Part shown: positions 44,935 to 60,533 of the stretch, one piece after another
How positions within the stretch are numbered: position 1 is the stretch's first letter
Layout of the letters: each line of letters starts with the position of its first letter
Sequence record: OL451225.1
Length of the DNA: 64,000 nucleotides
Origin: Escherichia phage P896
Direction: 5' to 3' (one strand)
Notes under the pieces: generated by a model
Databases searched by the model: none
Told to the model about the DNA's origin: nothing
The model's input: the letters and a program-made list of their open reading frames with translations, nothing else
Made by a program: the position numbers and the translations under genes

Positions 44935-45234
44935 TTAGAAAGAACCAGAACCTTTAATTGTGTTCTGGCGACCTTTATTTTCCAATTCAGAATGGTCAAT
45001 TTCATATGCTTGTGCCACGCCAAAAGCCTTTTTAACTTTAGCTAAAGAACCTTTAGATGTAACAATATTAAAAGTATTACCTTTGGTAAAATCAACCAAA
45101 TCCACTTGTACACCTTGTTTACCGAGGCTTGCGACAATAGCATCAACATATTGTTGGTCTAAATTGCCCTGGACTCCAATTTGGAATGCTTTAGGAGCTT
45201 TGGCTTCAGTAATAAATTCTTGATAAGTTTTCAT
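44935..45234 (-). CDS. Internal head protein (capsid-targeting sequence), 99 aa
   Basis: N-terminus MKTYQEFITEA = T4 internal-protein CTS. Confidence 0.7.
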   Translation of the reverse strand: MKTYQEFITEAKAPKAFQIGVQGNLDQQYVDAIVASLGKQGVQVDLVDFTKGNTFNIVTSKGSLAKVKKAFGVAQAYEIDHSELENKGRQNTIKGSGSF

Positions 45235-45291
45235 TTTATTCTCTCTAAGTTGATGGGATAATTATGCACTATCCCATCAAAAAGTAAACAG
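45235..45291 (-). promoter_or_regulatory. T4-type early promoter + leader (family A variant)
   Basis: Minus GTTTACTTTTTGATGGGATAGTGCATAATTATCCCATCAACTTAGAGAGAATAAAATG. Confidence 0.55.
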
Positions 45292-45555
45292 TTATGCTTT
45301 ACCGCCAGAAACAATACCAAAGGTCTCAAAGTCCCATTCAATATCGTCAACATCAACTTTCTTACCAGCAACCACGAATGCGATTTCGCGACGTTTTGCA
45401 TAGGTGACAATTTCTTTACCATCGCCGCCAAAGAAAGAATAACCATTGCGCTTCATGGTGCCAAAGTCTTCAGCATCACCAGCGAATGCGCGGACTTTAA
45501 AGGAACCAGCAGGAGCTTTGGCAGATTCAGTAATAAATTCTTGATAAGTTTTCAT
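45292..45555 (-). CDS. Internal head protein (CTS), ~87 aa
   Basis: Start at MKTYQEFITES; shares DAEDF..KRNGYSF motif with 59552..59851. Confidence 0.65.
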   Translation of the reverse strand: MKTYQEFITESAKAPAGSFKVRAFAGDAEDFGTMKRNGYSFFGGDGKEIVTYAKRREIAFVVAGKKVDVDDIEWDFETFGIVSGGKA

Positions 45556-45603
45556 TTTATATTCCATTGTTTGGTTGATAAAATCATTATACAACCTTTT
45601 TAG

Positions 45604-46020
45604 TTAAGCGTACACAGCTTTCCCATAGTATTTGTACCAGGTAGGCTTTTGAGAAATTTTCTCATTCAGTCTGGCTTGACTGATTTCAATTGACCAGATT
45701 GATGGTTGATAATCATTCTTCCATTCATCAGGAATATCATTTAAATCTTGGGTAGAAATATCTTTTATGTTAAACCCTCGCTTTAAACATTCCGCAATAA
45801 GTTCTTGATGACGGTTTTTAAGGAACAAAAGCTTATCATAAAAGAAGGTGACATGACCAGTCCCTAAAAGAAAAGATGATGGGATTTTAAAGTCAGAAAC
45901 CTTTTTACCATTTTGCACATGCTTACGAACAGCACCAAACACGCGAGGAAGTTCACGATATTCGGCCATAAGATGTTGGTCAGCAAGTTCAGATACCAGG
46001 GTCAAATTAATGCGAGTCAT
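45604..46020 (-). CDS. denV: Endonuclease V (pyrimidine dimer DNA glycosylase) DenV
   Basis: Start at [35 protein letters not shown]; near-identical to recalled T4 DenV. Confidence 0.93.
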
Positions 46021-46079
46021 GTTTGTTCTCCTATGTTTGTAGGAGAACATTATATCACACGTATCGTGGAAGTAAACTG

Positions 46080-46382
46080 TTATTTACCTTTAATTGCTTT
46101 AGCTGCTTCGATAGCCGCTTGCTGAAGGTCATCCATAGACATGCCGAACTTAGAAGCAAAGTTATCAATTTTCTTTTCGACAGAATTCAAAGGCTTGGCC
46201 TGTTTACCTTCGTTAGCGCCAGGGAGAGCTAGAATACGCTCTTTGTCAATATAAAGGCTTACAAGTTTCTTACGGTCTTTATCTGGTAAATCATGAAATG
46301 AATGGGCCTTTTTATTTACAGCGGCTTCTAATTTACCTGCACTTACGCGCGCTTCGGTGATAAATTCTTTATACGTTTTCAT
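46080..46382 (-). CDS. ipII: Internal protein II-like (CTS-bearing), 100 aa
   Basis: [23 protein letters not shown] with gp21-type L-x-E cleavage site; between denV and e. Confidence 0.7.
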
Positions 46383-46390
46383 ATTTTACC

Positions 46391-46882
46391 TTATTTGTAT
46401 GCGCTAAAAGTTCCGGTACGGAACGTTTCTATAACTCGTTTGGCTCGGTTCGGAGTCTGGACTTTATACCATCTCGAGTCGGCCAGTTCTTTGGCGGCGG
46501 CTTCCCACGATTTGGCCTTCAACAATCGCATACCCTTAGGAAAACCAGCAACACCAGCAACACCCATCTGGAATACCATATTAATGAGTGCACAACGACG
46601 AACTTCATCTAGCACATCATAAACAGGTTTTAAGACAGGGTGTCTCAAGATTCCGGCTTTAGCTTTTTCGACCGAACGGTTAAACAATGTTTCAGCTTCG
46701 TGCTGGGTTATGCGACCATTACAGACGCGACCCATGAGCTTGTCGAGCTCGGCACGAGCAACATCTTTTGATGGGTTCTTAGTTATCAGTTGCCCGATAC
46801 CAATGGTCCAAAAGCCTTCGGTATCTTTATACAAATCCAACTTACAACCTTCATCTATGCGTAACATTTCGAATATATTCAT
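46391..46882 (-). CDS. e: Lysozyme (endolysin) gpe
   Basis: 163 aa; [12 protein letters not shown]...YKDTEG..TIGIG...[18 protein letters not shown]...[19 protein letters not shown] matches T4 lysozyme. Confidence 0.95.
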
Positions 46883-46908
46883 AATACCCCCTTATATAGG
46901 GGTATTTA

Positions 46909-47361
46909 TTATCCGAAAATTTGAGTCATTACCTTGTACATCGATTTACCCATCACGTATTGCCATTGGCTCGGTTTAATCAGAGCAAATGCATCAAACT
47001 CTGGGACTGTACTGCCATCCGGAAAGGTATGATAGGCAGAGCATTTACTGTGTCTGAATTGTTCATGCTCGACAGGAACCGTATACAAAAACAGGTGAAG
47101 GTTTTTGTTATCTGAATAACGGAACTCACCGAGGTCTTTTAAGAATGCCGGGTCGTATTGGGTAAACCCAGTTTCTTCTTCGGTTTCACGAATAGCCGCT
47201 TCAATTGGGGATTCATCAGCTTCAACATGACCCTTAGGGATGTCCCATTTGTGTGCAGGCATACCTGGTTTACGAGAACCGGTCACACGACCCATGAATA
47301 ACTCTTTATCTTCGGTCATGAAAATAATGCCAGCAGATAATTCCTTCACTTTCTTACTCAT
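46909..47361 (-). CDS. nudE: Nudix hydrolase NudE
   Basis: Nudix box GHVEADESPIEAAIRETEEETGF; position next to e as T4 e.1/nudE; start set at MSKKVKEL. Confidence 0.85.
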   Translation of the reverse strand: MSKKVKELSAGIIFMTEDKELFMGRVTGSRKPGMPAHKWDIPKGHVEADESPIEAAIRETEEETGFTQYDPAFLKDLGEFRYSDNKNLHLFLYTVPVEHEQFRHSKCSAYHTFPDGSTVPEFDAFALIKPSQWQYVMGKSMYKVMTQIFG

Positions 47362-47590
47362 CGTCACGTTCCCAAGATTTTTTAAAGATTTCGGCCATAA
47401 TAATTTCAACGCGTGTTTCTGTTGATGGGCTTTCACTATCAGTTATTTGCACCATATAGTCAGAAATCGGGCAGAACATATCCAAGTCAGTTTCTAAATC
47501 ATCTTTGATTTTCTCTTCTGATGTACCTGTATCATAGGAATACAGATAAGAATCACATGACTCGGATTTAATATAAATTGCAATACTCAT
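47354..47590 (-). CDS. Hypothetical acidic protein (78 aa)
   Basis: ORF track. Confidence 0.5.
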   Translation of the reverse strand: MSIAIYIKSESCDSYLYSYDTGTSEEKIKDDLETDLDMFCPISDYMVQITDSESPSTETRVEIIMAEIFKKSWERDDE

Positions 47591-48171
47591 TTACGGCATT
47601 CCTCAATAAAAGAGTTTAATGTATTTTTCTTGGCGATATCATCATATACCTTTTTAACTTTAGAAATACGAAAAGGTACTTCAATAGCCATAGTCCATAA
47701 AAATGATGCAATAAGTCCAACAGCAGCAGAAGAAATGCACGCGCCCATTACAGCCACAGGTGCTTCATTTTTACCCGTCAAGAAAAACCACAGGATTGGT
47801 AAAAATAAGATTCCAGCCCAGGCATAAAACCTGGAACAAATTAACTTATCAAATTCATCTTTCCAGGTACGAAATCCATATTTCTTGCTATAAGAAATTA
47901 ATGGGTCGGGTGTCTGTTCTTTGAGTGGTTCCGGTTGATACCCATTAACAATATATCCCATTTTATATTCCTTAATTAAAAGCTCTTTCACATGACGATT
48001 GCATCGCGACCAATCAACATTTTCCACCTTGATTCCTTCATCACCATCGTCAAGGTTCGCCCAATATTTTTTGGTAATCATAAATTCATCTCTTGATACA
48101 ATTATACCTGCATTTTCTGCCCGACGGATGAAGTTTACATCAACACCCATACAACCAGGTTCATACAGCAT
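47587..48171 (-). CDS. Membrane protein (194 aa) with C-terminal FIEECRK tail
   Basis: C-terminal TM helices; shares terminal FI.EC[RK] motif with 52421/52761/53095 ORFs. Confidence 0.55.
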   Translation of the reverse strand: MLYEPGCMGVDVNFIRRAENAGIIVSRDEFMITKKYWANLDDGDEGIKVENVDWSRCNRHVKELLIKEYKMGYIVNGYQPEPLKEQTPDPLISYSKKYGFRTWKDEFDKLICSRFYAWAGILFLPILWFFLTGKNEAPVAVMGACISSAAVGLIASFLWTMAIEVPFRISKVKKVYDDIAKKNTLNSFIEECRK

Positions 48172-48857
48172 TACCAGCCCTCCATAGGAAATTCCAGATA
48201 TACTTGAGCATTAACGCGGATTTCATTGGTGATTTTATTAACGCGGTCAGTTTTACGAGATACGCGACCAAACCAGCGCCAACCATTACCAACCGTTTTT
48301 GTTCCAGTATGCCAGGTCTGCCAGTTGAATTCACACAACGTGCGGTCAGGAGCTTCTTGAACTAAAAGTTCACCCGCCTTGATTTTTTCCAGAACTTCCT
48401 GATGCCACTGGCGATAGATAAGTTCGCCATCAGGAATCTGACTGAATTCTGAAGTTCCCAGAGCAAAATGAGTAGGGCAAACAGAAGCGTTAACCAGACC
48501 CAGGATGTGTTCAGAATGGTAACGAGGGTTATCATAATCAGGTTGTCCTGCTGTAATAAAATGTTGTCCTGCTGGAATATCTGGACGTGGTACATCATCA
48601 TGGTGATACCCAGGGATAGCAGGATACCAACCAGGCATCAACATATGGACGCGAGAGTCAAATACAACCTGGTCAGTGTTCCAATCATCCGGCAGGTTCA
48701 TGATGAAGCTGCGAGTAATAGGACCGCCATTATCAAAAGCGAAGGCTAACGAGCTGTTGAAGAACATAGTTTCGTTTTTGATTTTATCGTTAGAAATTTT
48801 ACCAGCAAATTGACCAACTTCACGCATTTGACTATTAAAAGTTTTTGAGCTATTCAT
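48171..48857 (-). CDS. Hypothetical protein (~228 aa)
   Basis: Start set at MNSSKTFNS with GAGGAAA RBS; His/Asp-rich segment GYHHDD. Confidence 0.55.
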   Translation of the reverse strand: MNSSKTFNSQMREVGQFAGKISNDKIKNETMFFNSSLAFAFDNGGPITRSFIMNLPDDWNTDQVVFDSRVHMLMPGWYPAIPGYHHDDVPRPDIPAGQHFITAGQPDYDNPRYHSEHILGLVNASVCPTHFALGTSEFSQIPDGELIYRQWHQEVLEKIKAGELLVQEAPDRTLCEFNWQTWHTGTKTVGNGWRWFGRVSRKTDRVNKITNEIRVNAQVYLEFPMEGW

Positions 48858-48867
48858 GATATTTTCC

Positions 48868-49104
48868 TCAGTATTCTTCATCATATTCAAAGTCTTCATC
48901 AAACTCGGGTTCCAGAGAAATTTCTTCTTCCGGGTGGAATTCACAAGGGAAGTATTCCACTTCACCACAATCGGCGTCATAGGACTGGAAATCAATTTGG
49001 ATTACGGTTTCGGATACAACAATAACTTCAGCAACCAAGTCACCTGCAATTTCCATTCCAACTTTAACATCTTTAGCTTTGATAGTATTCATTTTATTCT
49101 CCAA
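48868..49104 (-). CDS. Hypothetical acidic protein (78 aa)
   Basis: ORF track; family B promoter upstream. Confidence 0.5.
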   Translation of the reverse strand: MENKMNTIKAKDVKVGMEIAGDLVAEVIVVSETVIQIDFQSYDADCGEVEYFPCEFHPEEEISLEPEFDEDFEYDEEY

Positions 49105-49158
49105 TTTGGTAACTCAGTATGGAATCATTATGCACTGACTCCATACTGATGTACACAC
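49105..49158 (-). promoter_or_regulatory. T4-type early promoter + leader (family B)
   Basis: Minus GTGTACATCAGTATGGAGTCAGTGCATAATGATTCCATACTGAGTTACCAAATTGGAGAAT. Confidence 0.6.
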
Positions 49159-50118
49159 TTATTTTGTGAAAGGACGAATTAAATGTTGGTTAGCCTTAAA
49201 GCGTTTAACATAGTCTTCGCGACCCAGGGTGTTGTACATATTAACCACTTCCTGGTAATGTTCCCAGGCATACTCGCGGAACCATCCAGAAGTAATGGAG
49301 GTACAGACTTTTTCCAGCGCAATATGGAAGCTCACAGATGGAGAGATATTGAACTCATTAGGAACCTGCGAACGCTCCAGAGCGAGCACACATGCTTCTT
49401 CATAAACCCCTGCCAGTTTAATAATCTCAGGGAGTGCTTCAAATTTTTCACGCGAGGTCATGACTTCTGAATCATCCTTCATATAAAACTTATATGCAGG
49501 CTTATCAGCAAGCGCCACAGCCTCGTGGATGGAGTCATGGTCAAGGGTGTAGATTGTATCATTAAAGAAAGTTTTCTTGCCCACGTCTAGTTTAGGGTGA
49601 CTGTATGACAGTGTTTCTGCCTGACGCTGCAGCATGATTTTCTGCAGTTCATCATTAAGAACAATACCCTTATTGCGAAGGTAATTAATATGACTCATGG
49701 TCTTCAGGAAGAATGGATTGTTCTTCAGGTAACGATGAGACAATTTAATCGCCAGACAAATATCAGGCGTCGCCCAATAGAAACCTGTAAGACGGTCTTT
49801 CTTAATATGATTTTCAGCGTATTTCAAGAGACGATAACTTGAGGTGAAATCTTCGTCTTGAAGCTCACCAGTAATTTCTCGTACGTTGGTCAGGGCACGG
49901 ACAATATAAGCTTCAAAATAGGTTTCTTTGCCATTGTACATACATTTAAAAGCTTGGACATCAGGGTTATCCACAGGAACATGAGCACCGAACATACGTG
50001 CTTTAAAGTGGTTCCAAGAACCCTGGTCAGCGATAAAGTCCCAATCAGAGTTTTCAATTTTCTGACTTTCAATCAGACCAGCGTTATGTAATGCACGAGA
50101 ACCAATAACTAACATCAT
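49159..50118 (-). CDS. Hypothetical protein (319 aa)
   Basis: Long ORF, no motif recognised. Confidence 0.65.
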   Translation of the reverse strand: MMLVIGSRALHNAGLIESQKIENSDWDFIADQGSWNHFKARMFGAHVPVDNPDVQAFKCMYNGKETYFEAYIVRALTNVREITGELQDEDFTSSYRLLKYAENHIKKDRLTGFYWATPDICLAIKLSHRYLKNNPFFLKTMSHINYLRNKGIVLNDELQKIMLQRQAETLSYSHPKLDVGKKTFFNDTIYTLDHDSIHEAVALADKPAYKFYMKDDSEVMTSREKFEALPEIIKLAGVYEEACVLALERSQVPNEFNISPSVSFHIALEKVCTSITSGWFREYAWEHYQEVVNMYNTLGREDYVKRFKANQHLIRPFTK

Positions 50119-50309
50119 AATATTTTCCTCATTAGTAAAGACGAGTTACTTCATATTTTCCAAGTGCCGATTTTTTCGCTTCAATTCGTGAGGCAGCAAG
50201 ATTGGCGGCCTCTAGTGAAGAAAATTGAACCACTTGAGAAGTATTCTGTCTTACTCCACCTTGCGGGTGAGTGACAAAAACAATAAGAACATTATACATA
50301 ATATTTTCC

Positions 50310-50510
50310 TCAAATAATACCGTATGCGTAAATATCTCTTTTAATGCAGGAAACTACTTCTTCCAGAGAATCACAAACACGTTCTGTGACGCCTGCGTAA
50401 TCACCACTGATGGTTACTTTAATGCCATCAGAAACTTCCTGGAGATTAACCTCCAGTTGGTTGACTTTGGCTTCGTTCAGAACTTTGATTAATTCGTTTG
50501 CGATAGACAT
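50310..50510 (-). CDS. Hypothetical protein (66 aa)
   Basis: ORF track. Confidence 0.45.
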   Translation of the reverse strand: MSIANELIKVLNEAKVNQLEVNLQEVSDGIKVTISGDYAGVTERVCDSLEEVVSCIKRDIYAYGII

Positions 50511-50574
50511 TTTTATTCTCCTGTTCTGATAACGTGATTGTCATCAGTTGATAGGAGTATAGTAACACAGTTTT

Positions 50575-50919
50575 TTAGACTTGTATACTGCTTCTACAAT
50601 ATTCTAAAAATAATTTATCGTTGTCTACCGTATCCCAACGACGCCAAGATGGATTCCAGACCAGAGCGTTGTCACCGCAATCATTGAGCTTAAAATGGTC
50701 GTAGTACATAGCTATATGTCTGGTTTCGTCACCAGAGAACCCCAGTATAGGCTCACCGTGAGTATGATACATATGATGATGCATTGAGAGGTCGCATTTG
50801 TAAAACATCTCACGTTTACCACGAACGAACAAGAAGGCTTGCCCATTCATATAGAATTCTTTATCTGTTTTCAAAAGATATTTGAATACCGAATCTTTAT
50901 GCATAATTCCTCCTACCAC
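50575..50919 (-). CDS. His-rich protein (114 aa), possible metal-binding
   Basis: HHHMYHTHGEPILGFSGD cluster. Confidence 0.5.
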   Translation of the reverse strand: MVGGIMHKDSVFKYLLKTDKEFYMNGQAFLFVRGKREMFYKCDLSMHHHMYHTHGEPILGFSGDETRHIAMYYDHFKLNDCGDNALVWNPSWRRWDTVDNDKLFLEYCRSSIQV

Positions 50920-50934
50920 ATCCTTGTGATTAAA

Positions 50935-51162
50935 TTATTTTCCTAACGAAATGCGAGTAGGTTTTTTACCGAAATATTCTTCATAGGAACCATCTAAACG
51001 ACCCGCTTTAGACCGACAATACGAATCATACTTTTTGTAATAAGCCAACTCGGTATTGTAACGTGGATGTCTATCAGCCATAATAATACTTAACGGCCAA
51101 CCTTTGGCGTAATCACGAAGACCATTTATTTTACGAATATATCTTTTCTTTAATTTTAACAT
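50935..51162 (-). CDS. Hypothetical basic protein (75 aa)
   Basis: ORF track. Confidence 0.45.
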   Translation of the reverse strand: MLKLKKRYIRKINGLRDYAKGWPLSIIMADRHPRYNTELAYYKKYDSYCRSKAGRLDGSYEEYFGKKPTRISLGK

Positions 51163-51389
51163 GAACTTGGGTACCAGATTTTACCATCGGCACTAGCAAC
51201 GAAGGTGCGACCAGCTTCTTCCCCATAACAAGAGCTGTTCAACCAGTCTTCAAGACGGACTTCGCCGTCATAATCATCAAGCTCAACACCAAAATCTTGA
51301 GCAGAAGCCATATCTTTTACTTTCTTATACAGTGCAGCCAGTTCAAGGGCGGCTTTTTCTAATTCAGCACGTTCAACAGCAGTAGTCAT
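51156..51389 (-). CDS. Hypothetical protein (77 aa)
   Basis: ORF track. Confidence 0.45.
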   Translation of the reverse strand: MTTAVERAELEKAALELAALYKKVKDMASAQDFGVELDDYDGEVRLEDWLNSSCYGEEAGRTFVASADGKIWYPSSC

Positions 51390-51398
51390 TTTATCACC

Positions 51399-51626
51399 TT
51401 AGCAAGACATAGAGGAGTTAAACCAGAAACCTTTACCATCTGGGATACCGTAATCACCACGAATCCAGTCATACTCTTCGTATTCTGGACAACCCGCAGG
51501 AATATATCGTTGAAGACTGTCAGCATACACATGAAAGTATTCACCAGTTTTATCGGCCAGTTGTTCACCTTCACAGATTAGTGCACGGATTTGGTCTTCA
51601 ATTTCTTTAACAGTTTTAGCAGTCAT
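51399..51626 (-). CDS. Small protein, W-x-S-S-x-x-C C-terminal family member 1 (75 aa)
   Basis: C-terminus GFWFNSSMSC. Confidence 0.55.
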   Translation of the reverse strand: MTAKTVKEIEDQIRALICEGEQLADKTGEYFHVYADSLQRYIPAGCPEYEEYDWIRGDYGIPDGKGFWFNSSMSC

Positions 51627-51635
51627 TTTATTTCC

Positions 51636-51833
51636 TTAGCATTCATAAGAGGAGGACACCCAGGAGCCACCCGTAATTGTAATACAGCCATTGTAAATCG
51701 TGATATGACGGTCCAGATGGTTTTCACCTTCGATATAGATATCAGCTTCTTCACGCTCTTCTTTACAAATCTGGATAACGTTTTCAATAGCTGCCGCGGC
51801 AGTACGGATTGCACAATCTAGTTCACGAGACAT
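51636..51833 (-). CDS. Small protein, W-V-S-S-S-x-x-C family member 2 (65 aa)
   Basis: C-terminus GGSWVSSSYEC. Confidence 0.55.
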   Translation of the reverse strand: MSRELDCAIRTAAAAIENVIQICKEEREEADIYIEGENHLDRHITIYNGCITITGGSWVSSSYEC

Positions 51834-51842
51834 AATAATTCC

Positions 51843-52124
51843 TTAACATTCAGCAGAAGAGGACACCCAACCACCATTTTCCAGGTCAGTTGTATAGTCA
51901 TGAGTATTAACAATAGCCCATTCAGGATGACCATGTTCTTCCCAATGAGCAAGGTCAGCTTTCAGGGCACCAGGAGAATAATAGTCACCGCCCATACCGC
52001 GAGCAGGGTATATATTAAAATGAGTCTCATATTTGTCTGCAATTTCCTCGGCACGACGAATAGCTTTATGGATGTCATTTACTGCGTTAGCCAGTTCTTT
52101 ATTTTTACGGTAATCATTCATCAT
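51843..52124 (-). CDS. Small protein, W-V-S-S-S-x-x-C family member 3 (93 aa)
   Basis: C-terminus NGGWVSSSAEC. Confidence 0.55.
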   Translation of the reverse strand: MMNDYRKNKELANAVNDIHKAIRRAEEIADKYETHFNIYPARGMGGDYYSPGALKADLAHWEEHGHPEWAIVNTHDYTTDLENGGWVSSSAEC

Positions 52125-52133
52125 AACGTTTCC

Positions 52134-52424
52134 TTAGCACATTGCCGAAGAGGAGACCCAAGCACCAACTGTAACGACACCGTTTTCAACTTCACCGCCG
52201 TTGTTTTCAATTTCATTTTTAAACCACTGGGAGCATTCATAACCGACAGGATAATATGTACGGCCCGAACCATAATCACCGGTACCAAATTGGATACCAT
52301 ATTCATCTGCGATTTCTTCACAGTGTTTTTCAATTTCAGAGGTCTTATTTAGAAGAGAATAGATAGCTTTTTCTGCAGATTTCTCATCATAATACTTGGG
52401 GATAGCAATTTCAATTTTATTCAT
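52134..52424 (-). CDS. Small protein, W-V-S-S-S-x-x-C family member 4 (96 aa)
   Basis: C-terminus VGAWVSSSAMC. Confidence 0.55.
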   Translation of the reverse strand: MNKIEIAIPKYYDEKSAEKAIYSLLNKTSEIEKHCEEIADEYGIQFGTGDYGSGRTYYPVGYECSQWFKNEIENNGGEVENGVVTVGAWVSSSAMC

Positions 52425-52774: not shown

Positions 52775-53120
52775 TACGAACCTCCTTAATAAATTCTTCG
52801 GCGCATTTAATTTTGTGCTCTTCTTGTAGGGAAACACATTTTTGTTCCCACTCTTTAACTCGTCCACGATATCCTTTATTCATATGATTTTGATGCCACA
52901 CATTTATCAATACCATACACAGGACTGTAATAAAAGGAGCTGCAATTACTAGCGTCCAGGCGACTCCAACACTAATGATATTCATATCCCCACAAAGCAC
53001 CATCATTATAACCCCAACGATGCACATGGACAAAGCTCCAAATGGAGGCATAAGGTCTTTATCAATCTTGTCTGCGTATACAAATTTTTCTGGTTTACTT
53101 GGCAGATATAACGTTCGCAT
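52761..53120 (-). CDS. Membrane protein (~119 aa) with C-terminal EEFIKEVRNG
   Basis: Start at MRTLYL with AAGGGG RBS; TM helices. Confidence 0.55.
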   Translation of the reverse strand: MRTLYLPSKPEKFVYADKIDKDLMPPFGALSMCIVGVIMMVLCGDMNIISVGVAWTLVIAAPFITVLCMVLINVWHQNHMNKGYRGRVKEWEQKCVSLQEEHKIKCAEEFIKEVRNGTA

Positions 53121-53667: not shown

Positions 53668-53692
53668 TTAGGGGGCAAAGCCCCCTTTTATC

Positions 53693-54286
53693 TTACTTAA
53701 GTGAATTGATGTATTCTTCAATGTCAGCGGACGTGGTATCCACACCAACCTGTGGACCTTTGAAGGTTTCAACACGCATCAGAGTGTCTTCAATATCAAT
53801 CTTGGTCAATGCAGCGATTTCAACAACATCATCTGCGGTTGCAATACCTAGGGCAGACACCTTACGGGTTTCGCGGATGTATTCCAGTTTAACAGCTAGT
53901 TCCTGACGAGAGTCATCCAGCTCTTTAACTTTCAATTTAATTTCATTACGCATTTCAACATAATCATCTGCCTTCTTACGAAGTTGTTTAGCAGTGCGAC
54001 GATACAGGAGACCCAGTTTAGCATGGACCTGGACATCAGCACCATCAGCAATCAGTTTTCGGATTTCACGCTCTTTTGAAGCGGCAAGCTGGTCTTTTTC
54101 ATTCGCTAACTCGCGGATGCGTTTTTCTTCATTAACAGACTTAACATGGGCAGTCTGGAGCTCAGTAATCTTATCAATCAGGGTAGAAGCTGCTTTAGTA
54201 TACTGGTCTTCAATAGACAGGTTTTGCGCCATTGCAGTACCCAGTTTGGAGCGGATGAATTCAACAATTTTCTTTAAAGTATTCAT
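53693..54286 (-). CDS. Coiled-coil protein (197 aa), PspA/IM30-like in composition
   Basis: Long amphipathic helical heptad-rich sequence; assignment tentative. Confidence 0.45.
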
Positions 54287-54361
54287 GGTATTTCCTTCAG
54301 ATGGTTAAAGTTTTATTATCCAGGGAACATACTATCATGTTCCCAGAGGTATGTAAACATT

Positions 54362-54790
54362 TTATTTCATTTTTGCGAGGCAGATTTCATTGGCTTCCCA
54401 TTGAGCTTGCTTAATAATAGCTTTGGATACAGGAACCTTTTGACCATAAGTTTTTGACGTTGAGAGAACAATATATTTGTTTGCCTCATTATGCCAACCC
54501 CATGATTTTTCACCATGAGTACCTTTAACTACAGCTGACACCTCAACAGAACAACCATCAGCGCCAATCTTGGTATCAACAATCCATTCATTTCGCTTAA
54601 TTGCTTCTTCCAATGCTGCCGCTTCCGCCATCCAGTGCGTTTCAGGGTCTATTTGTTCAATCTCACGAGTTAACGCAGCTCCCAGGTCTTTTGCATATTT
54701 TTGTTGCTCTGGGGTTAATGAGTCATATAACTTTTTCATTTCTTTATCTTCAATATTCATAATATTTTCCTCAGGGGGCTTTCGCCCCAA
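54362..54790 (-). CDS. Hypothetical protein (142 aa)
   Basis: ORF track. Confidence 0.5.
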   Translation of the reverse strand: MGRKPPEENIMNIEDKEMKKLYDSLTPEQQKYAKDLGAALTREIEQIDPETHWMAEAAALEEAIKRNEWIVDTKIGADGCSVEVSAVVKGTHGEKSWGWHNEANKYIVLSTSKTYGQKVPVSKAIIKQAQWEANEICLAKMK

Positions 54791-54794
54791 TCAT

Positions 54795-55100
54795 TTAGAT
54801 TTTGTTTTCCTGCACACCATAATAAAGTTCATCAGACACAATATCCAGGATGCGGCGAACATATTCATCATGGTATTGGCAGTCAAAATCAAATGCAACA
54901 GTAGTTTCCGCTTCACGAGTGAATTTAACTTGCACATTCAGGTGATTAACAACGTTAGTTAATTTATCAGTAAAGAACTCTTTTGCTACCGCCTGTTGGA
55001 CTTGCACTTTGAACTTGGTGTTACGAATCATATTTTCAGCAGATGCGAAATTACCAGTTTTATCAAAGTCAACAAGCGCCAGGTTGATGATGAATTTCAT
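54795..55100 (-). CDS. Hypothetical protein (101 aa)
   Basis: ORF track; family B promoter upstream. Confidence 0.5.
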   Translation of the reverse strand: MKFIINLALVDFDKTGNFASAENMIRNTKFKVQVQQAVAKEFFTDKLTNVVNHLNVQVKFTREAETTVAFDFDCQYHDEYVRRILDIVSDELYYGVQENKI

Positions 55101-55181
55101 TTTATTCTCCAGTGTTTTATTTGGTAACTCAGTATGGAATCATTATGCCTTAAAGCAGGGGGCTTGTATACCCCTTTTTAA
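55101..55181 (-). promoter_or_regulatory. T4-type early promoter + leader (family B)
   Basis: Minus GGTATACAAGCCCCCTGCTTTAAGGCATAATGATTCCATACTGAGTTACCAAATAAAACACTGGAGAAT. Confidence 0.6.
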
Positions 55182-55625
55182 TTAAATTTCAAATTCTTTG
55201 CGGAAGTTGGAAGCATAAGACTGAACTGATGCTTTGTTGAATCCAAACTCACGCACAATCATATCAATAACAGCTCTGCGAGCAGCACCATTAGACATAT
55301 TAACAGTTTTGAACATATCATAGCATAAATCTTTGTTGCTCATACCGGAGCGTTTAGGTGCCTTACGTTCAGCTTTTGGTTCAGCTTTAGGAGTAGGTTT
55401 AACTTCTGGTTTAACCTGTCCATCATTCAGACCTTTAAAAATTTTACCTGCCAGAGTTGCCAGTTTAGCAGCTTCGCCACGAGTGATACCAAATACTGCC
55501 GGGTTAAATGAAATACCTTCAGCTGTCAGACGTTTGAAGAACATACGTGCTGCGGATTGTGCTTCAGCTTCAGAAGAGTTGTTTAATGCCAGTTTAACAT
55601 ACTTAACCAGTTTTGAAGTTTTCAT
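55182..55625 (-). CDS. Hypothetical protein (147 aa), shared C-terminal domain with 56078..56503
   Basis: C-terminus NGAARRAVIDMIVREFGFNKASVQSYASNFRKEFEI. Confidence 0.55.
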   Translation of the reverse strand: MKTSKLVKYVKLALNNSSEAEAQSAARMFFKRLTAEGISFNPAVFGITRGEAAKLATLAGKIFKGLNDGQVKPEVKPTPKAEPKAERKAPKRSGMSNKDLCYDMFKTVNMSNGAARRAVIDMIVREFGFNKASVQSYASNFRKEFEI

Positions 55626-55698
55626 TTTATTATCCCGTTTGTTTATTTGTTAACTCAGTATGGAATCATTATGCCTTAGTTAAATTCCAAAGTACATA
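55626..55698 (-). promoter_or_regulatory. T4-type early promoter + leader (family B)
   Basis: Minus ...CATAATGATTCCATACTGAGTTAACAAATAAACAAACGGGAT. Confidence 0.55.
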
Positions 55699-55995
55699 TT
55701 AATTTTCAGAAGTTGGGAAATAAACTTCAAAGTCATACATGTTTACTACTGCAGACGCGATTGCTTGGTACTGCATACCCAAGAAAGTTTTCTTGTTCTT
55801 ACGCCACAAGTTAACCATTTCTGTTTTGATGCATGCCAGGGAGTAGTTGGATGCAGGATACTGTTTGATGATTGCAACAACTTCTTCAGAAGCAGTTTCG
55901 CACAATTCATTCAGTTGAGCTTCAATTTTAGCAGAAATGATTGCTTTGTTTTCTTCTTGAGCTTGGGTAGCGTGCCATGCAGGTGCGTTGAACAT
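55699..55995 (-). CDS. Hypothetical protein (98 aa)
   Basis: ORF track. Confidence 0.5.
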   Translation of the reverse strand: MFNAPAWHATQAQEENKAIISAKIEAQLNELCETASEEVVAIIKQYPASNYSLACIKTEMVNLWRKNKKTFLGMQYQAIASAVVNMYDFEVYFPTSEN

Positions 55996-56077
55996 TTTAT
56001 TCTCCAGTGTTTTATTTGTTAACTCAGTATGGGATAATTATACACTATCCCACCTGGAAGTAAAACACTTTTCTCAA
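55996..56077 (-). promoter_or_regulatory. T4-type early promoter + leader (family B/A hybrid)
   Basis: Minus GTGTTTTACTTCCAGGTGGGATAGTGTATAATTATCCCATACTGAGTTAACAAATAAAACACTGGAGAAT. Confidence 0.55.
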
Positions 56078-56503
56078 TTATTTTTGAGCTTTGCGGAAGT
56101 TGGATGCATATGACTGAACAACAGTCTTTTTGATATCATGGGTGGTAACCAGAACATCAATCAGAGCGCGACGAGCTGCATTATCATTCATATCAATTTC
56201 TGCAAATGCCTGGAAGCAAATGTCACGAGCGTTACCAGATTTGGACTGGATTTTTTCTTCTTTAACTTCTTCAATTGGGAATTCAATCATTTCAGCTTGG
56301 ATTAATTCAATGATAGATTCTTTTGACTGTTTGGTGTTTACCTTCAGTTCAGAATTAAGGGACTTGGCGATGGCAACAATCTGGGTTGAAGTCAGATGAA
56401 TAAGTGCATCTTCACGAATGCAGATTTCACATACTTCGTCAGCAACCATTTTGTTAGTGATGCGGGTAACAGAGAATGCAGAGGTCAGGGTCAGGAAGTT
56501 CAT
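56078..56503 (-). CDS. Hypothetical protein (141 aa), shared C-terminal domain with 55182..55625
   Basis: C-terminus NDNAARRALIDVLVTTHDIKKTVVQSYASNFRKAQK. Confidence 0.55.
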   Translation of the reverse strand: MNFLTLTSAFSVTRITNKMVADEVCEICIREDALIHLTSTQIVAIAKSLNSELKVNTKQSKESIIELIQAEMIEFPIEEVKEEKIQSKSGNARDICFQAFAEIDMNDNAARRALIDVLVTTHDIKKTVVQSYASNFRKAQK

Positions 56504-56600
56504 TTTATTTCTCCAAAGTTTTGTTTTGATTCAGTGTGTAACTCAGTATGGAATCATTATGCACCCGGTCAATCCGGATGTACACTACTTTTTGAAGAAA
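56504..56600 (-). promoter_or_regulatory. T4-type early promoter + leader (family B)
   Basis: Minus GTAGTGTACATCCGGATTGACCGGGTGCATAATGATTCCATACTGAGTTACACACTGAATC. Confidence 0.6.
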
Positions 56601-56623
56601 ATTTCAAATTTATTCGGGGTATA

Positions 56624-56660
56624 AAAAAACCCCAACCTTTCGGAAGGGGCCATACCTTGT
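56624..56660 (-). terminator. Rho-independent terminator
   Basis: Minus GGCCCCTTCCGAAAGGTTGGGGTTTTTTT (interrupted stem + T7 run). Confidence 0.6.
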
Positions 56661-56688
56661 CGGGGTTCCACCTGCAAGGCAAGTGTTC

Positions 56689-57072
56689 TTATCCGCGAGC
56701 AAAGGCCATTGCAGCGCGTTCGTTGGCACGGTCAGTGATGTTCAAGAATTTATCACGAGCGATTTCGATTGGAGCACCAACCCAGTCAGCGGCACCATTA
56801 CCTGGAGACTGTTTAGGACGAACCATATAAGTTGAAACTTTGGAACCAGCTAGTTTAGCACCAGGTGCTGCTGCGTTTTTAACATCTTTAGCTTTGATGC
56901 CAAACCCAGTTACGATACCCCAAGAAACGCCATTAACTGGTTTCTTGAACATAACACGGTCACCAATTGAAACACCGGCTTTTTCTGGAGCCACTAAAGA
57001 AAATTTGCCAGCTTCAGTCAGTACGGATTCGGTGATGGTATTGCGATTTAAAAATTCTGCATATGTAAGCAT
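56689..57072 (-). CDS. Internal-protein-like late protein with variant CTS (127 aa)
   Basis: N-terminus MLTYAEFLNRN resembles MKTYQEFI CTS; TATAAATA late promoter ~35 nt upstream. Confidence 0.55.
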   Translation of the reverse strand: MLTYAEFLNRNTITESVLTEAGKFSLVAPEKAGVSIGDRVMFKKPVNGVSWGIVTGFGIKAKDVKNAAAPGAKLAGSKVSTYMVRPKQSPGNGAADWVGAPIEIARDKFLNITDRANERAAMAFARG

Positions 57073-57103
57073 TTTGTTTTTCCATTATTAGGGTTGTTGT
57101 TAA

Positions 57104-57111
57104 TATTTATA
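57104..57111 (-). promoter_or_regulatory. T4-type late promoter (TATAAATA)
   Basis: Plus tatttata = minus TATAAATA upstream of 56689..57072. Confidence 0.55.
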
Positions 57112-57114
57112 TTC

Positions 57115-57300
57115 CATAGTACCGGATGCACCATCCGCTCGGATTTCTCATACTACCGGACGCACCGTCCGCTCTGGAAAAACTCCGTAAAAGGGTGCGC
57201 CGTTTCTGCTGTGATATAAGGGGACATCAACAAATCGTAAAGATTTATTAATGCCAGTCCTTAAACAGGGAACATCAGTCCGACGACTTACCGGTAGCGA
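57115..57300 (-). ncRNA. Candidate structured small RNA region downstream of tRNA-Arg (cf. T4 stable RNA species C/D)
   Basis: Non-coding; tandem near-identical hairpins CGGATG-CAC-CATCCG (57123-57137) and CGGACG-CAC-CGTCCG (57157-57171). Confidence 0.3.
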
Positions 57301-57309
57301 CCCGGTTTC

Positions 57310-57549
57310 TCATTCAATTGTAATAGCTAATTTGACTTTAACAACCTTATAATTGGAATCAAGGTCATTGAATTCCATAAAATTTGTTGCTAATCTGCGA
57401 GTCGGGAAACTTAGATATTTATTATGCTCAGGTGGAGCAGTTAATGCAAACCATGGGACTTGTTTATCATTTTCATCAAACTCATCAAAGCTATAAACCA
57501 GCTCGTTGCTGGTTATATCCATAACTGCATATGATTCACTAATAACCAT
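57310..57549 (-). CDS. Hypothetical acidic protein (~79 aa)
   Basis: Start set at MVISESYAVMD so as not to overlap tRNA-Arg. Confidence 0.45.
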   Translation of the reverse strand: MVISESYAVMDITSNELVYSFDEFDENDKQVPWFALTAPPEHNKYLSFPTRRLATNFMEFNDLDSNYKVVKVKLAITIE

Positions 57550-57564
57550 AATATCCTCAGTAAT

Positions 57565-57641
57565 TGGTCGGGGTGGTGGGATTCTAACCCACAACCTACG
57601 GTTTAGAAGACCGTTGCTCTATACAATTAAGCTACACCCCG
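57565..57641 (-). tRNA. tRNA-Arg (anticodon TCT), CCA encoded
   Basis: Cloverleaf read by eye: acceptor CGGGGTG/CACCCCG, anticodon arm ACGGT-CTTCTAA-ACCGT, T arm GTGGG-TTAGAAT-CCCAC. Confidence 0.7.
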
Positions 57642-57643
57642 GG

Positions 57644-57717
57644 TGGCCCCATCCGGACTTGAACCGGAAACCTGCCAGTTATGAGCCGGATGCTCTAACC
57701 AATTGAGCTACAGGGCC
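57644..57717 (-). tRNA. tRNA with CAT anticodon (Ile-lysidine type as in T4, or Met)
   Basis: Acceptor GGCCCTG/TGGGGCC, D arm GCTC-AATTGGTTA-GAGC, anticodon loop CTCATAA, T arm TCCGG-TTCAAGT-CCGGA; directly abuts tRNA-Arg. Confidence 0.8.
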
Positions 57718-57722
57718 TAAAA

Positions 57723-57998
57723 TTAAATTACAAATCCAGCGGGAGCATTATCATCTTTAGCCATATGCTGAATTGTATGATAAGTCATTTCTTCTGGTGC
57801 AACCAGATAAGCCGCCGTATTAACCAACGGGATTAATTTGACTTTATTGAATGTTGAACAACCAATTGACATAAAGGTTTCGCCTGTTGGATGCTGAATT
57901 TCGCCAAATTGACACTCATACGAAATAGAGCAACGTTTGGTAGTGGTTGTCTTTGTTTTAGGGTCATAAAAAGCTAATTTTAATACTAACATAAACAC
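57723..57998 (-). CDS. Hypothetical protein (91 aa)
   Basis: ORF track; immediately upstream of tRNAs. Confidence 0.45.
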   Translation of the reverse strand: MFMLVLKLAFYDPKTKTTTTKRCSISYECQFGEIQHPTGETFMSIGCSTFNKVKLIPLVNTAAYLVAPEEMTYHTIQHMAKDDNAPAGFVI

Positions 57999-58113
57999 CT
58001 CAAGTAAAATTAAGTAAAGTAAGTTTGATTAATAGCACATGCTATTATGAAAGGTTCTTTGAGGGAAGAACCTTTGGTAATAGAGGGTACTTATTAATAA
58101 TAACGCGTTTTTG

Positions 58114-58590
58114 TTAAAGCATATCAAGCGCTTTAACAGATGGGATTCGGATTTCTTCTTCGATTATATATAGCTTAACATAAGAAATTACACGCATGAA
58201 ATCGCCATCATATTCGCAAGCCATACCAAGGAGCTCAGTAAGGGATTCATTCAGGTAGTATGCTTCTTCATCATCATTCAGCAATGCATCTAAATCTTCT
58301 ACACCCAGAACCTTACTTAAAAATTCATGGGTTAACTGGCCAGATTTTACGCCAGATGCAATGTGGGCAATAACCAAGTGTTTAACCACATCCCATTCTG
58401 AATTACCACATTTATTGCGGTTGTTACAATGTGAACCATGGAAAAGTTCCAGGATATATTTGTACTGTTGGATTTCTTGTTCTTCTACGCCAAATACCGT
58501 TTGGGTTTTATAGTTGTCACCATCATTTTCCCAGGTTTCAATTTCAATCACATAACCTTTAGGGATGGTCTGACCAAATTTAATATTCAT
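58114..58590 (-). CDS. Hypothetical protein (158 aa)
   Basis: ORF track. Confidence 0.55.
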   Translation of the reverse strand: MNIKFGQTIPKGYVIEIETWENDGDNYKTQTVFGVEEQEIQQYKYILELFHGSHCNNRNKCGNSEWDVVKHLVIAHIASGVKSGQLTHEFLSKVLGVEDLDALLNDDEEAYYLNESLTELLGMACEYDGDFMRVISYVKLYIIEEEIRIPSVKALDML

Positions 58591-58592
58591 AA

Positions 58593-59021
58593 TCAGCCCT
58601 CATCAACAATAGTATGTGTATTGGCATTAACAATCTGCCACCAGTCAAAACGGTTGGAACCATAACAAGACTTCTTCTCGTTTTCTTTAATGATATCACG
58701 CAGTTCATCTTCAGTCGCAGCTTTTGCAATTAAGTCAGCATAACCGCCACGAGGATAATAGTTATCACCAGCAAAGAGCAAAAAGTTTGTTTTGATATTC
58801 TTGAATTCTTCAAGAGTAATAACTGTTCCACCAGGTTGAACAATATCTACATAACTATACCCTAATTTTTGAGCTTCATCTACCGCTTCAAGCAGGGTGT
58901 CATGTGCCCACCCAATTTGACAATCTGGTTTTTCAGATGGATTTGCCTGATAATCCGCATACACTTTATACATTTTACTCACCTTTAGAGATTTTATCCA
59001 TAACGAAAGAGATTGAACCAA
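58593..59021 (-). CDS. Hypothetical protein (142 aa or shorter from MYKVYADY)
   Basis: ORF track. Confidence 0.5.
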   Translation of the reverse strand: MVQSLSLWIKSLKVSKMYKVYADYQANPSEKPDCQIGWAHDTLLEAVDEAQKLGYSYVDIVQPGGTVITLEEFKNIKTNFLLFAGDNYYPRGGYADLIAKAATEDELRDIIKENEKKSCYGSNRFDWWQIVNANTHTIVDEG

Positions 59022-59160
59022 TTAAAAATGCAACTACTAAAGAGATTATATTCTCAGAAGTTGAAAGCATATTCAACATAAAGCCAGCAAACATGCTAAA
59101 ACCAAAAGCGGTAACAGCAACAAAGGCAGTAACATTTCTAATTAATTCGCAACGTTTCAT
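58975..59160 (-). CDS. Small membrane protein (61 aa)
   Basis: Start at MKRCELI; upstream track extension is promoter-leader read-through; two TM helices. Confidence 0.5.
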   Translation of the reverse strand: MKRCELIRNVTAFVAVTAFGFSMFAGFMLNMLSTSENIISLVVAFLIGSISFVMDKISKGE

Positions 59161-59217
59161 TTTATTCTCCTCAGTAGTTGATGGGATAATCATACTACAG
59201 TTATCCCATCACGTACA
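59161..59217 (-). promoter_or_regulatory. T4-type early promoter + leader (family A)
   Basis: Minus GTGTACGTGATGGGATAACTGTAGTATGATTATCCCATCAACTACTGAGGAGAATAAAATG. Confidence 0.6.
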
Positions 59218-59496
59218 CTAAATTTTTGTATATTGTCCAGCTTTAACTTTTTTCAGTTCACGAGGGCTTACCGCGTAAGTGAATGGAGCATTCCAGGAAG
59301 AACTGACTTTGTAACCTTTAGTCAACATCATTGCTGAAACTTTCTTGTTATCAGGACCGTTTTCGCCTTTAACAAGAAACAACTCAAATGCGCCCCCATC
59401 AACCGGTTTGGCCTTAACCATCAGATGTCCTTTCAGGTCTTCCAGCATATCCGGGTGACTAATTGATTCGTTAATAAATTCTTGATAAGTTTTCAT
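59218..59496 (-). CDS. Internal head protein (CTS), 92 aa
   Basis: N-terminus MKTYQEFINES. Confidence 0.65.
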   Translation of the reverse strand: MKTYQEFINESISHPDMLEDLKGHLMVKAKPVDGGAFELFLVKGENGPDNKKVSAMMLTKGYKVSSSWNAPFTYAVSPRELKKVKAGQYTKI

Positions 59497-59551
59497 TAGT
59501 AGCTCCAGTAGTTGATGGGATAATTATACTGCAACTATCCCATCGTGTACA
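59497..59551 (-). promoter_or_regulatory. T4-type early promoter + leader (family A)
   Basis: Minus ATGTACACGATGGGATAGTTGCAGTATAATTATCCCATCAACTACTGGAGCTACTAATG. Confidence 0.6.
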
Positions 59552-59851
59552 TTACATTTTTGAACCACGAATTACACCATAAGCGGCGAAGTCGTCAGAA
59601 ATATCTTTAGGTGAGTTCTTACCAGTTTCAATGAAGGCAATGCTTGACTTCTGACTAAAAGAGGTAATTTTGTTATAGTTGGAGTCAAGGAAGGTATAAC
59701 CATTTTTGCGTAGCTGGTCAAAGTCTTCAGCGTCGCCTTTGCCTTTGAAGTCAACCCATTTGTAGGTGTTTTTCTTCTGAAGACCCAGAGGCCAGGTTTT
59801 TGCTTCTGCCAGGTAATTGTTTTCTACCAAAAATTCATGAAAAGTTTGCAT
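59552..59851 (-). CDS. Internal-protein-like (variant CTS MQTFHEFLVEN), 99 aa
   Basis: Shares DAEDFDQLRKNGYTF motif with 45292..45555. Confidence 0.55.
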   Translation of the reverse strand: MQTFHEFLVENNYLAEAKTWPLGLQKKNTYKWVDFKGKGDAEDFDQLRKNGYTFLDSNYNKITSFSQKSSIAFIETGKNSPKDISDDFAAYGVIRGSKM

Positions 59852-59859
59852 TTGAAATC

Positions 59860-60132
59860 CTATTTTAGATAAATTGCATATTTTTTATAACCAGCTGTCT
59901 CATGACGGAGACCCTTGTCATTGGCAAAACGCTCAATGTTATTAATTTGGTTCTGGTCAAGTTCTGAAATGTCAAACGCGAAAAAGTTGCGTTTGTTACC
60001 AATTGTTATATGGTCAGTCAAGTCAATGCTATACAGGTGATTGATATTGTCAATCATAGCTTTGACTGCTTTACTAATTTTTACTTCTTCATTCAGTTGG
60101 GACTCGTTGAAAAGTTCATTGAAAGTTTTCAT
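59860..60132 (-). CDS. Internal-protein-like (CTS MKTFNELFNES), 90 aa
   Basis: CTS-like N-terminus. Confidence 0.55.
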   Translation of the reverse strand: MKTFNELFNESQLNEEVKISKAVKAMIDNINHLYSIDLTDHITIGNKRNFFAFDISELDQNQINNIERFANDKGLRHETAGYKKYAIYLK

Positions 60133-60140
60133 AAGAAACC

Positions 60141-60473
60141 TTATTTATATAGTTTTGCCAGTTCTTTACGTCCGCGAGCAGACATAATAAATTGTTCATC
60201 GCCAATTTTAAAATAAGCCATACCACCGTCAACAGCGATACCAATTTCTTTAGTACCTTCTTTGCCTTTCCACTTGCCACCAGATTTCAGAACAGCTTCA
60301 ACTGCAGCTTTGGAATATTTGGACGTTTGAAAACGTTCATTACCAATCTGAAAGAAAACACCATCTGCATTTTTGGTTAAACCAAATTTCAGAGAGCCTT
60401 CACTATCATCAATTGATTTGGTCTCATTGATGGCGGATTCGGCTAAAAACTCGTTGTAAGTTTTGATGTTCAT
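60141..60473 (-). CDS. Internal protein I-like (CTS MNIKTYNEFLAES), ~110 aa
   Basis: CTS-like N-terminus; adjacent to 57B as T4 ipI. Confidence 0.6.
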   Translation of the reverse strand: MNIKTYNEFLAESAINETKSIDDSEGSLKFGLTKNADGVFFQIGNERFQTSKYSKAAVEAVLKSGGKWKGKEGTKEIGIAVDGGMAYFKIGDEQFIMSARGRKELAKLYK

Positions 60474-60533
60474 ATTAACTCCGTTTGTTCGTTGGTGTAG
60501 GAACATAATACTGCGCCTACACTCATTTGTACA
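60474..60533 (-). promoter_or_regulatory. T4-type early promoter + leader (variant)
   Basis: Minus GTAGTGTACAAATGAGTGTAGGCGCAGTATTATGTTCCTACACC. Confidence 0.45.

Follow-up and report, generated by a model that had tools for sequence, protein, structure and literature searches.

Internal-Protein Genes at Two Loci

A 64,000-nucleotide stretch of DNA from Escherichia phage P896 (sequence record OL451225.1), referred to throughout as the window, contains nine open reading frames (ORFs), A–I, whose products begin with a capsid-targeting sequence (CTS) like that of the phage T4 internal proteins (Ips). All nine lie on the minus strand, and a prohead-protease site follows each CTS. By analogy with the characterized Ips, A–G are likely internal-protein genes at two classical loci, H probably marks a third locus, and the injected cargos would most likely block specific host nucleases. 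The ninth ORF, I, is a homologue of T4 gp61.1. An earlier note on this DNA had listed the same nine ORFs as seven genes and two candidates. All nine exist on the minus strand, the positions listed being their low, stop-codon ends, and the internal-protein identity then proposed is borne out by the leaders, by the occupation of two known Ip loci, and by orthology to VR7 and T4 proteins. The ORFs, numbered by position in the window, are as follows.

44935-45234, minus strand: A, Ip7-type gene; 99 amino acids (aa), leader MKTYQEFITE, predicted mature part 89 aa, pI 9.3
45292-45555, minus strand: B, RB69ORF125c-type gene; 87 aa, leader MKTYQEFITE
46080-46382, minus strand: C, ipII orthologue; 100 aa
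59218-59496, minus strand: D, CTS-led ORF; 92 aa, leader MKTYQEFINE
59552-59851, minus strand: E, second RB69ORF125c-type gene; 99 aa, variant leader MQTFHEFLVE
59860-60132, minus strand: F, Ip9 gene; 90 aa, leader MKTFNELFNE, then SQLNE
60141-60473, minus strand: G, CTS-led ORF; 110 aa, leader MNIKTYNEFLAE, a CTS shifted by two residues
56689-57072, minus strand: H, candidate internal protein; 127 aa, long leader MLTYAEFLNRNTITE, then SVLTE after the cut
4870-5037, minus strand: I, gp61.1 homologue; 55 aa, MKTFKDFINE/DMVAGD..., the slash marking the cut

A–C lie between vs.8 and e, one of the two classical Ip loci, with C between e and denV, as in T4. D–G occupy the second classical locus, the ipI locus, between a tRNA.4-like gene and 57B. 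The window as a whole (39.7% G+C) follows the T4 gene order on the minus strand: a gp56-like dCTPase gene, 61, 61.1, 41, uvsX, 43, 45, 47, 55, 49, tk, vs.8, denV, and e, followed by nudE, tRNA-Met/Arg, 57B, 57A, and gene 1. In megablast searches the closest records are VR7, SP18, VR20, and similar Gaprivervirus coliphages at 92–97% identity. The matches are patchy and mosaic, and no single record spans as much as 80% of an 18-kb region. Judged from gene order and DNA identity, the source is a T4-like coliphage of the VR7/SP18 (Gaprivervirus) type. An Rfam scan over 44–62 kb returned nothing beyond two tRNAs.

Immediately upstream of the ipI-locus cassettes is gene 57B (60534-60989, minus strand). 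It matches Acb1 strongly (Pfam PF23474, E = 1.5e-59), and its product is, on the strength of that match, the nuclease Acb1, which counters the cyclic-oligonucleotide-based antiphage signaling system (CBASS).

The Leaders and Their Cleavage Sites

The set of nine was delimited in two ways. A relaxed CTS motif, scanned over 778 Met-start ORFs and 100 shuffles, gave nine matches in the former and none in the latter, and an origin of the leaders by chance is excluded. In addition, a hidden Markov model (HMM) built from 23 known ten-residue leaders was scored on all 1,658 possible ATG, GTG, or TTG N termini. The nine ORFs scored 15.9–26.4 bits, and the next best N terminus, at an internal TTG, reached 10.2 bits. 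This gap indicates that there are exactly nine and that none has been missed.

In the CTS, targeting to the core depends on residues 4 and 7 and cleavage on residues 8 and 10, and propeptides span 10–19 residues; ten CTS residues are enough to load foreign proteins into T4 heads (PMC9026906). A–E, H, and I have Tyr or Phe at position 4 and Phe at position 7, the targeting determinants, whereas F has Leu at position 7 and G falls into register only after a two-residue shift. A protease site consistent with the CTS was looked for and is present in all nine ORFs: ITE or INE at residues 8–10 in A–D and I, LVE in E, FNE and then LNE in F, LAE at residues 10–12 in G, and, in H, ITE at residues 13–15 followed by LTE at 18–20, comparable to T4 IPI with ITE at residues 17–19 (MKTFKEFTSTTTPVSTITE). 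A–E thus conform to every experimentally defined leader rule (PMC9026906).

The earlier note had described seven ORFs as starting with MKTYQEFI(T/A)E or close variants. A CTS is found in all seven; the canonical form is limited to A–D, with variants in E–H. The odd leaders of E and G are diverged canonical ones, since the same mature domains in other phages follow canonical leaders, namely MKTYQEFINE or MKTYQEFLTE in the orthologues of E (P0024-P0026) and MKTYKEFL(A/T)E in the homologues of G (P0027, P0028).

Unrelated Cargos Behind a Common Leader

A–G are each 94–100% identical to VR7 or T4 proteins, and the PHROG families of A, C, D, F, and G are matched both with and without the leader. 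PHROGs annotates families 2667, 7857, and 7673 as "internal head/virion protein"; families 15565 and 3966 are uncharacterized. A is 97% identical to VR7 Ip7, matches phrog_2667 (8e-43 with the leader, 6e-34 without), and has homologues in 283 phage records, T2 among them. B starts at the ATG at 45555, not at the TTG at 45594; it is 100% identical to VR7ORF127c and occurs in 207 phage records, all T4-like. C and T4 IpII are 94% identical, with 6 differences over 100 residues, and C matches phrog_7857 at 1e-54.

At the second locus, D is 100% identical to VR7ORF153c and matches phrog_15565. Its occurrence is limited to 17 phage records, in each of which it is labeled "hypothetical" and is at least 97.8% identical; none annotates it as an Ip. 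E shares 94% identity with VR7ORF154c, and its AlphaFold2 model, with a predicted local distance difference test (pLDDT) score of 71.7, is a small α/β sandwich. F is 100% identical to VR7 Ip9 and matches phrog_7673 at 3e-56. G starts at the ATG at 60473, with GGAG 6 nucleotides (nt) upstream, is 99% identical to VR7ORF156c, and matches phrog_3966. It is found in 55 T4-like records and called ipI only in the Edwardsiella phages PEi20 and PEi26; an exhaustive search with G gave two true homologues and two repeat proteins that look spurious.

An all-against-all comparison shows that the cargo domains are mutually unrelated except for the B–E pair. The earlier note had pointed to a DAEDF...(K/R)NGY(S/T)F motif in two members; the motif is real, the two are B and E, and they have it in common because their mature parts are paralogous (E = 4e-15). 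A was also considered as a homologue of B and E, with which PHROGs groups it. Direct profile comparison gave only a 0.7% probability, and only B and E are therefore called paralogues.

The predicted mature parts are 77–112 aa long, and six of the eight are basic (pI 9.1–10.1). This composition would suit packaged proteins that act mainly as generic basic counter-ions or as packing or ejection aids, their diversity being neutral drift, as would solid-state nuclear magnetic resonance data in which lysines of the T4 internal proteins contact DNA phosphates (PMC3012670). Such a role is nevertheless quite unlikely to account for the set: B and F are near neutral (pI 6.2 and 6.8), the cargo folds are unrelated rather than merely similar in composition, and every tested Ip (Ip1, Ip2, Ip3, and Ip6) has a specific nuclease target. 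The distribution of the Ip9 cargo also speaks against it. Residues 19–90 of F are 51% identical (E = 2e-29) to a complete, leaderless 72-aa protein of Kagunavirus, siphoviruses of 44 kb without a T4-type head, in which the gene (JSSK01, 2507-2725) is the first of an early-looking small-ORF operon beside a helix-turn-helix gene. The cargo evidently does not need a T4 head in order to work, in keeping with a function directed at the host.

Promoter-Enclosing Hairpins and Cassette Exchange

A, D, G, and the gene after D are preceded by promoter-enclosing hairpins (PeSLs), in which TGTACA or TTTACT, a spacer of 16–17 nt, and TATAAT form a σ70-like promoter. They were found with a variable-gap pattern; a fixed-spacing pattern gave none. 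Exact GGGATA...TATCCC hairpins number 4 versus 0.01 expected, and the folds have z scores of -2.7 to -5.8. The T4-type late promoter octamer TATAAATA has seven copies in the window, all on the minus strand, and among the nine ORFs perfect copies precede only F, H, and I. The elements at the two loci are as follows.

45243-45294, minus strand: PeSL upstream of A; early promoter in hairpin GATGGGATA...TATCCCATC; -18.1 kcal/mol, z = -5.8
59171-59222, minus strand: PeSL downstream of D, at the junction that carries the ip6 cassette in VR7
59505-59556, minus strand: PeSL upstream of D; TGTACA-N17-TATAAT in hairpin; -17.3 kcal/mol, z = -3.3
60493-60540, minus strand: PeSL-like hairpin upstream of G; TGTACA-N17-TATTAT; -13.8 kcal/mol, z = -2.7
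60142-60149, minus strand: late promoter TATAAATA, 17 nt upstream of F, serving F and, downstream, E and D

PeSLs have been described in the hyperplastic regions of T4-like phages, and shuffling mediated by them has been published (PMC4122927). Similar to the PeSL mobile cassettes of Arbiol (2010) and Comeau (2014), the elements in the window nest a σ70-like -35/N17/-10 promoter in a stem-loop between variable ORFs; the stem GATGGGATA/TATCCCATC and the -35 box TGTACA/TTTACT are lineage-specific. The ip genes of T4 itself have the same promoter-hairpin arrangement upstream. In VR7 (stretch 11719-12065), ip6 is flanked by two PeSLs; at that junction the window has a single PeSL, and ip6 is missing. 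The difference runs from PeSL to PeSL, making ip6 a clean cassette gain or loss between the window and VR7. The CTS-coding DNA is itself a direct-repeat family (35 nt, 69–89% identity; D3/D4), and the repertoire is probably kept variable through cassette exchange, with the conserved CTS-coding DNA and the intergenic PeSL repeats as recombination sites.

These nucleotide-level repeats allow another view, in which the common 5′ end is a recombination or translation-initiation cassette and some products, especially E, F, G, and H, are unpackaged cytoplasmic early accessory proteins. The early promoter-hairpins before A, D, and G and the scarcity of perfect late promoters agree with it, as does the finding that IPIII remains active without its CTS if it is provided inside the cell (PMC9391042). 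It is nonetheless very unlikely. The DNA of E, F, and G has diverged (69–74%), yet the targeting and cleavage residues are kept in the protein; ten CTS residues load foreign proteins into T4 heads (PMC9026906); and the T4 ip genes with the same promoter-hairpin arrangement yield packaged products.

A Candidate Third Locus

H lies between the e.x ORFs and tRNA-Arg. Its leader scores 15.9 bits with the HMM (E = 9e-4), and its G+C content at third codon positions (0.31) is typical of the phage. Two further elements frame it.

57104-57111, minus strand: late promoter TATAAATA serving H; perfect T4-type octamer, 39 nt upstream of H
56625-56688, minus strand: intrinsic terminator after H; GC-rich hairpins, then a T run; -25 kcal/mol

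RB69ORF149c (MKTYAEFLTE) and JS98 orf135 (MKTYNEFLNESVLNEAG), both CTS-led, occupy the same map position, and the JS98 leader aligns to that of H with 64% identity over 22 aa. H is an orphan, known only from near-identical copies (98% or more) in 15 phage records and one metagenomic cluster, and its AlphaFold2 model is unusable (pLDDT 35). The earlier proposal of H as a variant-leader candidate is plausible and gains strength from the leader score, the late promoter, the terminator, and the RB69/JS98 map position. H is probably an Ip gene at a third locus, a credible but unproven assignment made from these sequence features.

Upstream of H, about 230 nt of non-coding DNA (57073-57309, minus strand) contain two tandem hairpins (GGACGGTGCGTCC, GGATGGTGCATCC). 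This segment occupies the T4 position of the small stable RNAs rnaC and rnaD, and Rfam matches none there.

gp61.1, a Copy of a Capsid Cleavage Site

I had been put forward in the earlier note as an additional Ip candidate; it turns out to be gp61.1, present in T4 too, and a copy of the cleavage-site region of gp23. It is 86% identical to T4 gp61.1 (MKTFKEFIKE; T4 stretch 1467-1631), a protein of 54–55 aa with a Lys-rich tail, encoded in T4 in the dmd/tifA/adfA island, with homologues in 808 phage records. Residues 2–38 of I align without gaps to residues 57–93 of T4 gp23 (49% identity, 38.5 bits), setting FINE/D of I on FLTE/A of gp23, which is the gp23 maturation site, where the first 65 residues of gp23 are lost. 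In the gp61.1 homologues the leader is conserved and [D/E]MVAGD is preceded by [I/L/V]-x-E or L-N-E, and some of these proteins are named "major capsid domain-containing protein" by NCBI. By its alignment and this conservation, I is a conserved capsid cleavage-site mimic rather than an extra member of the variable set. Literature searches found gp61.1 neither as a head protein nor as the subject of a paper.

T4-like phages may conceivably use the head-delivery tag beyond the two Ip loci, with H, RB69ORF149c, and JS98 orf135 at a third locus beside the tRNA genes and gp61.1 as an overlooked protease substrate that imitates both the maturation site and the N-terminal arm of gp23, the major capsid protein, an extension that we consider unlikely. 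Were it so, gp61.1 might enter the head as a peptide, or it might serve to distract either the protease or an immune system that senses the capsid.

Near gp61.1, two adjacent ORFs (5446-5805 and 5807-6376, minus strand) both end in DDQIFNAFMKR(G/D), like the C terminus of T4 61.2 (AdfA). A Pfam match to AdfA, weak and below threshold (E = 3e-4), was obtained for the first of these AdfA-like ORFs only.

Proposed Function of the Injected Cargos

Each gene would encode a two-part module: a CTS of 10–15 residues and an unrelated, small, mostly basic cargo. The CTS, in which position 4 is aromatic, position 7 is Phe or Leu, and [I/L/F]-x-E follows, would dock the protein on the prohead scaffolding core, and a gp21-type prohead protease would cut the CTS off after the Glu. 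The cargo would then stay in the head among the DNA, be injected with it, and, in the cell, most likely bind and block one specific first-line host nuclease. The phage is inferred to have a gp21-type protease and a gp22-type scaffold, given its T4-like gene order and a DNA identity of 92–96% to VR7 and SP18.

The known Ip targets are type IV enzymes of the GmrSD and McrBC kinds, which attack DNA with modified cytosine. Ip1, Ip2, and Ip3 inhibit three different GmrSD enzymes, and none protects against the target of another; that of Ip2 is GmrSD-ECOR21 (PMC12373910). Genetics of Ip3 likewise show GmrSD inhibition (PMC9391042), and Bas37_0260 inhibits McrBC (preprint 10.1101/2025.11.20.689424). 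The bas37_0260 gene of phage KarlGJung (Bas37, MZ501089) is of the Ip6 type, 78% identical to VR7 Ip6. It resembles the genes described here as a CTS-led gene at the ipI locus, beside 57B. The window, however, lacks this cassette between D and the tRNA.4-like gene, and a search of the window for a Bas37_0260/Ip6 homologue found none. Homologues of Ip1 and Ip3 are also absent from the window. C is the only protein to which orthology would assign a target, namely GmrSD-ECOR21, the target of Ip2. The packaging of these proteins and the target of each are otherwise inferred by analogy, C being a partial exception as an Ip2 orthologue. With the targets of Ip1, Ip2, Ip3, and Ip6 established, the injected anti-restriction role raised in the earlier note has become mainstream and is the best current reading. 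Circumstantial support comes from the leaderless Ip9 cargo elsewhere and from the adjacent Acb1. The Dar proteins of phage P1 and others offer a parallel, being described as head-packaged and delivered with the DNA against restriction (PMC12810830); they differ in being large, with unrelated sequences and another packaging route, and in acting against type I systems.

That several of the injected factors are aimed beyond type IV restriction, for example at other first-response nucleases or at sensors, is possible but less probable than not. Targets are known for four Ip types only, the neighboring gene encodes the putative anti-CBASS protein Acb1, and the window has no T4-type glucosyltransferases, so the phage may face different modification-dependent enzymes. 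All four characterized Ips target type IV enzymes, however, and Silas et al. argue that the two loci specialize in variants of one defense family (PMC12373910). With regard to DNA modification, a dUTPase_2-family gene (2900-3436, minus strand) occupies the gp56 (dCTPase) position. Within 9672-11829, the gap from uvsX to imm is only ~750 bp, and, given this and the result of the search for T4 gp42 and the glucosyltransferases reported below, any genes for cytosine modification must be located elsewhere or be of a different kind.

Several observations weigh against the assignment of A–H as packaged, nuclease-blocking Ips. The leaders of three proteins depart from the tested T4 IPIII sequence: F has Leu for Phe at position 7 and F-N-E for I/L-x-E, G has two extra N-terminal residues, and H has no Glu at position 10. 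Among A–H, most genes stand behind early-type promoters, with a perfect late promoter only at F and H. For none of the nine proteins did Pfam or NCBIfam return a hit above threshold; H belongs to no family, and a sequence search of the PDB with it came back empty. Of the eight cargos, six lack a tested homologue. The model of E, the one usable structure model, matches generic folds only. Genes 21 and 22, for the prohead protease and the scaffold, fall beyond the window, and T4 gp42, α-gt, and β-gt have no match within it, which bears on DNA modification. Finally, virion proteomics or mass spectrometry of these proteins or of VR7/JS98-type orthologues was not found in the literature searched. 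Weighed together with the leaders, loci, and orthology, these points leave the injected nuclease-blocker assignment likely.

Other ORFs in the Window

Two groups of ORFs lie between the Ip loci. Five tandem ORFs of 65–96 aa (51156-52424, minus strand) each end in W-x-(x)-S-S-x-x-C, the endings being WYPSSC, WFNSSMSC, WVSSSYEC, WVSSSAEC, and WVSSSAMC, and their gene junctions are repeated (repeat family D5). They form a paralogous array. The neighboring ORFs 55182-55625 and 56078-56503 (minus strand) have in common a C-terminal block, ...AARRA(V/L)ID..V....VQSYASNFRK, and a 31-nt DNA repeat (D17); Pfam matches neither.

Comparison with Related Phages

The set had been called unusually large in the earlier note, which is true against T4 only. 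One loose, uniform CTS scan of the homologous vs.8-to-gene-1 region gave three CTS genes in T4, five in JS98 (one unannotated), five in fPSFA, and eight each in VR7 and the window; RB69 has four by pattern and ~7 on inspection (ORFs 123c, 124c, 125c, 127c, 149c, ipI, and 156c). The unannotated JS98 gene, a 97-aa ORF at ~20250-20554 (minus strand) with the canonical leader MKTYQEFIKE, lies in the 650-nt trna.4-57B gap of the RefSeq record. Across 1,124 phage records, the canonical 30-nt CTS DNA was located 2,354 times, with one to five copies per record among 60 sampled and four in close relatives, the same number as in the window. T4 relatives have been described as encoding many more Ips than T4, "at least 10" (PMC12373910), and likewise in PMC3012670.

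The loci and gene order match those of T4, VR7, RB69, and JS98. The genes resemble the T4 Ips (IPI, IPII, and IPIII) in leader logic, in the two loci, in their small, non-homologous cargos, and in the promoter-in-hairpin elements upstream. They differ in that the window has no IPI or IPIII orthologue, 7–8 genes rather than three, and several variant leaders. Polymorphic ip loci of the T-even phages, with Ip4–Ip10, were reportedly described by Repoila et al. in 1994. In the annotation of such loci in VR7, RB69, JS98, and RB32, A corresponds to Ip7, F to Ip9, and B and E to the RB69ORF125c type, and several counterparts of A–G are already annotated as internal head proteins in VR7 and RB69. The ipI locus of VR7 has the same gene order as the window except for ip6, with D as VR7ORF153c and G as VR7ORF156c. 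As a combination the set is mosaic: the window has ipII and H, which are absent from VR7, and lacks ip10 and ip6 of VR7.

Significance

Neither the seven core genes nor the concept is new, and H, D, and G, though unannotated, belong to a known kind. New here are the promoter-hairpin cassettes, the ip6 cassette difference, the leaderless Ip9 cargo, H as a third-locus candidate, and gp61.1 as a copy of a capsid site. Since the set was already known, its value is practical: it yields six candidate cargos (A, B/E, D, F, G, and H) for anti-defense screens, a clear example of cassette gain or loss in ip6, and a cargo, that of Ip9, that circulates untagged in unrelated phages. Internal proteins are first responders, arriving with the DNA before phage gene expression. 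Knowing the Ip set of a phage helps to predict which restriction-armed strains it can infect, which is useful in choosing therapeutic phages.

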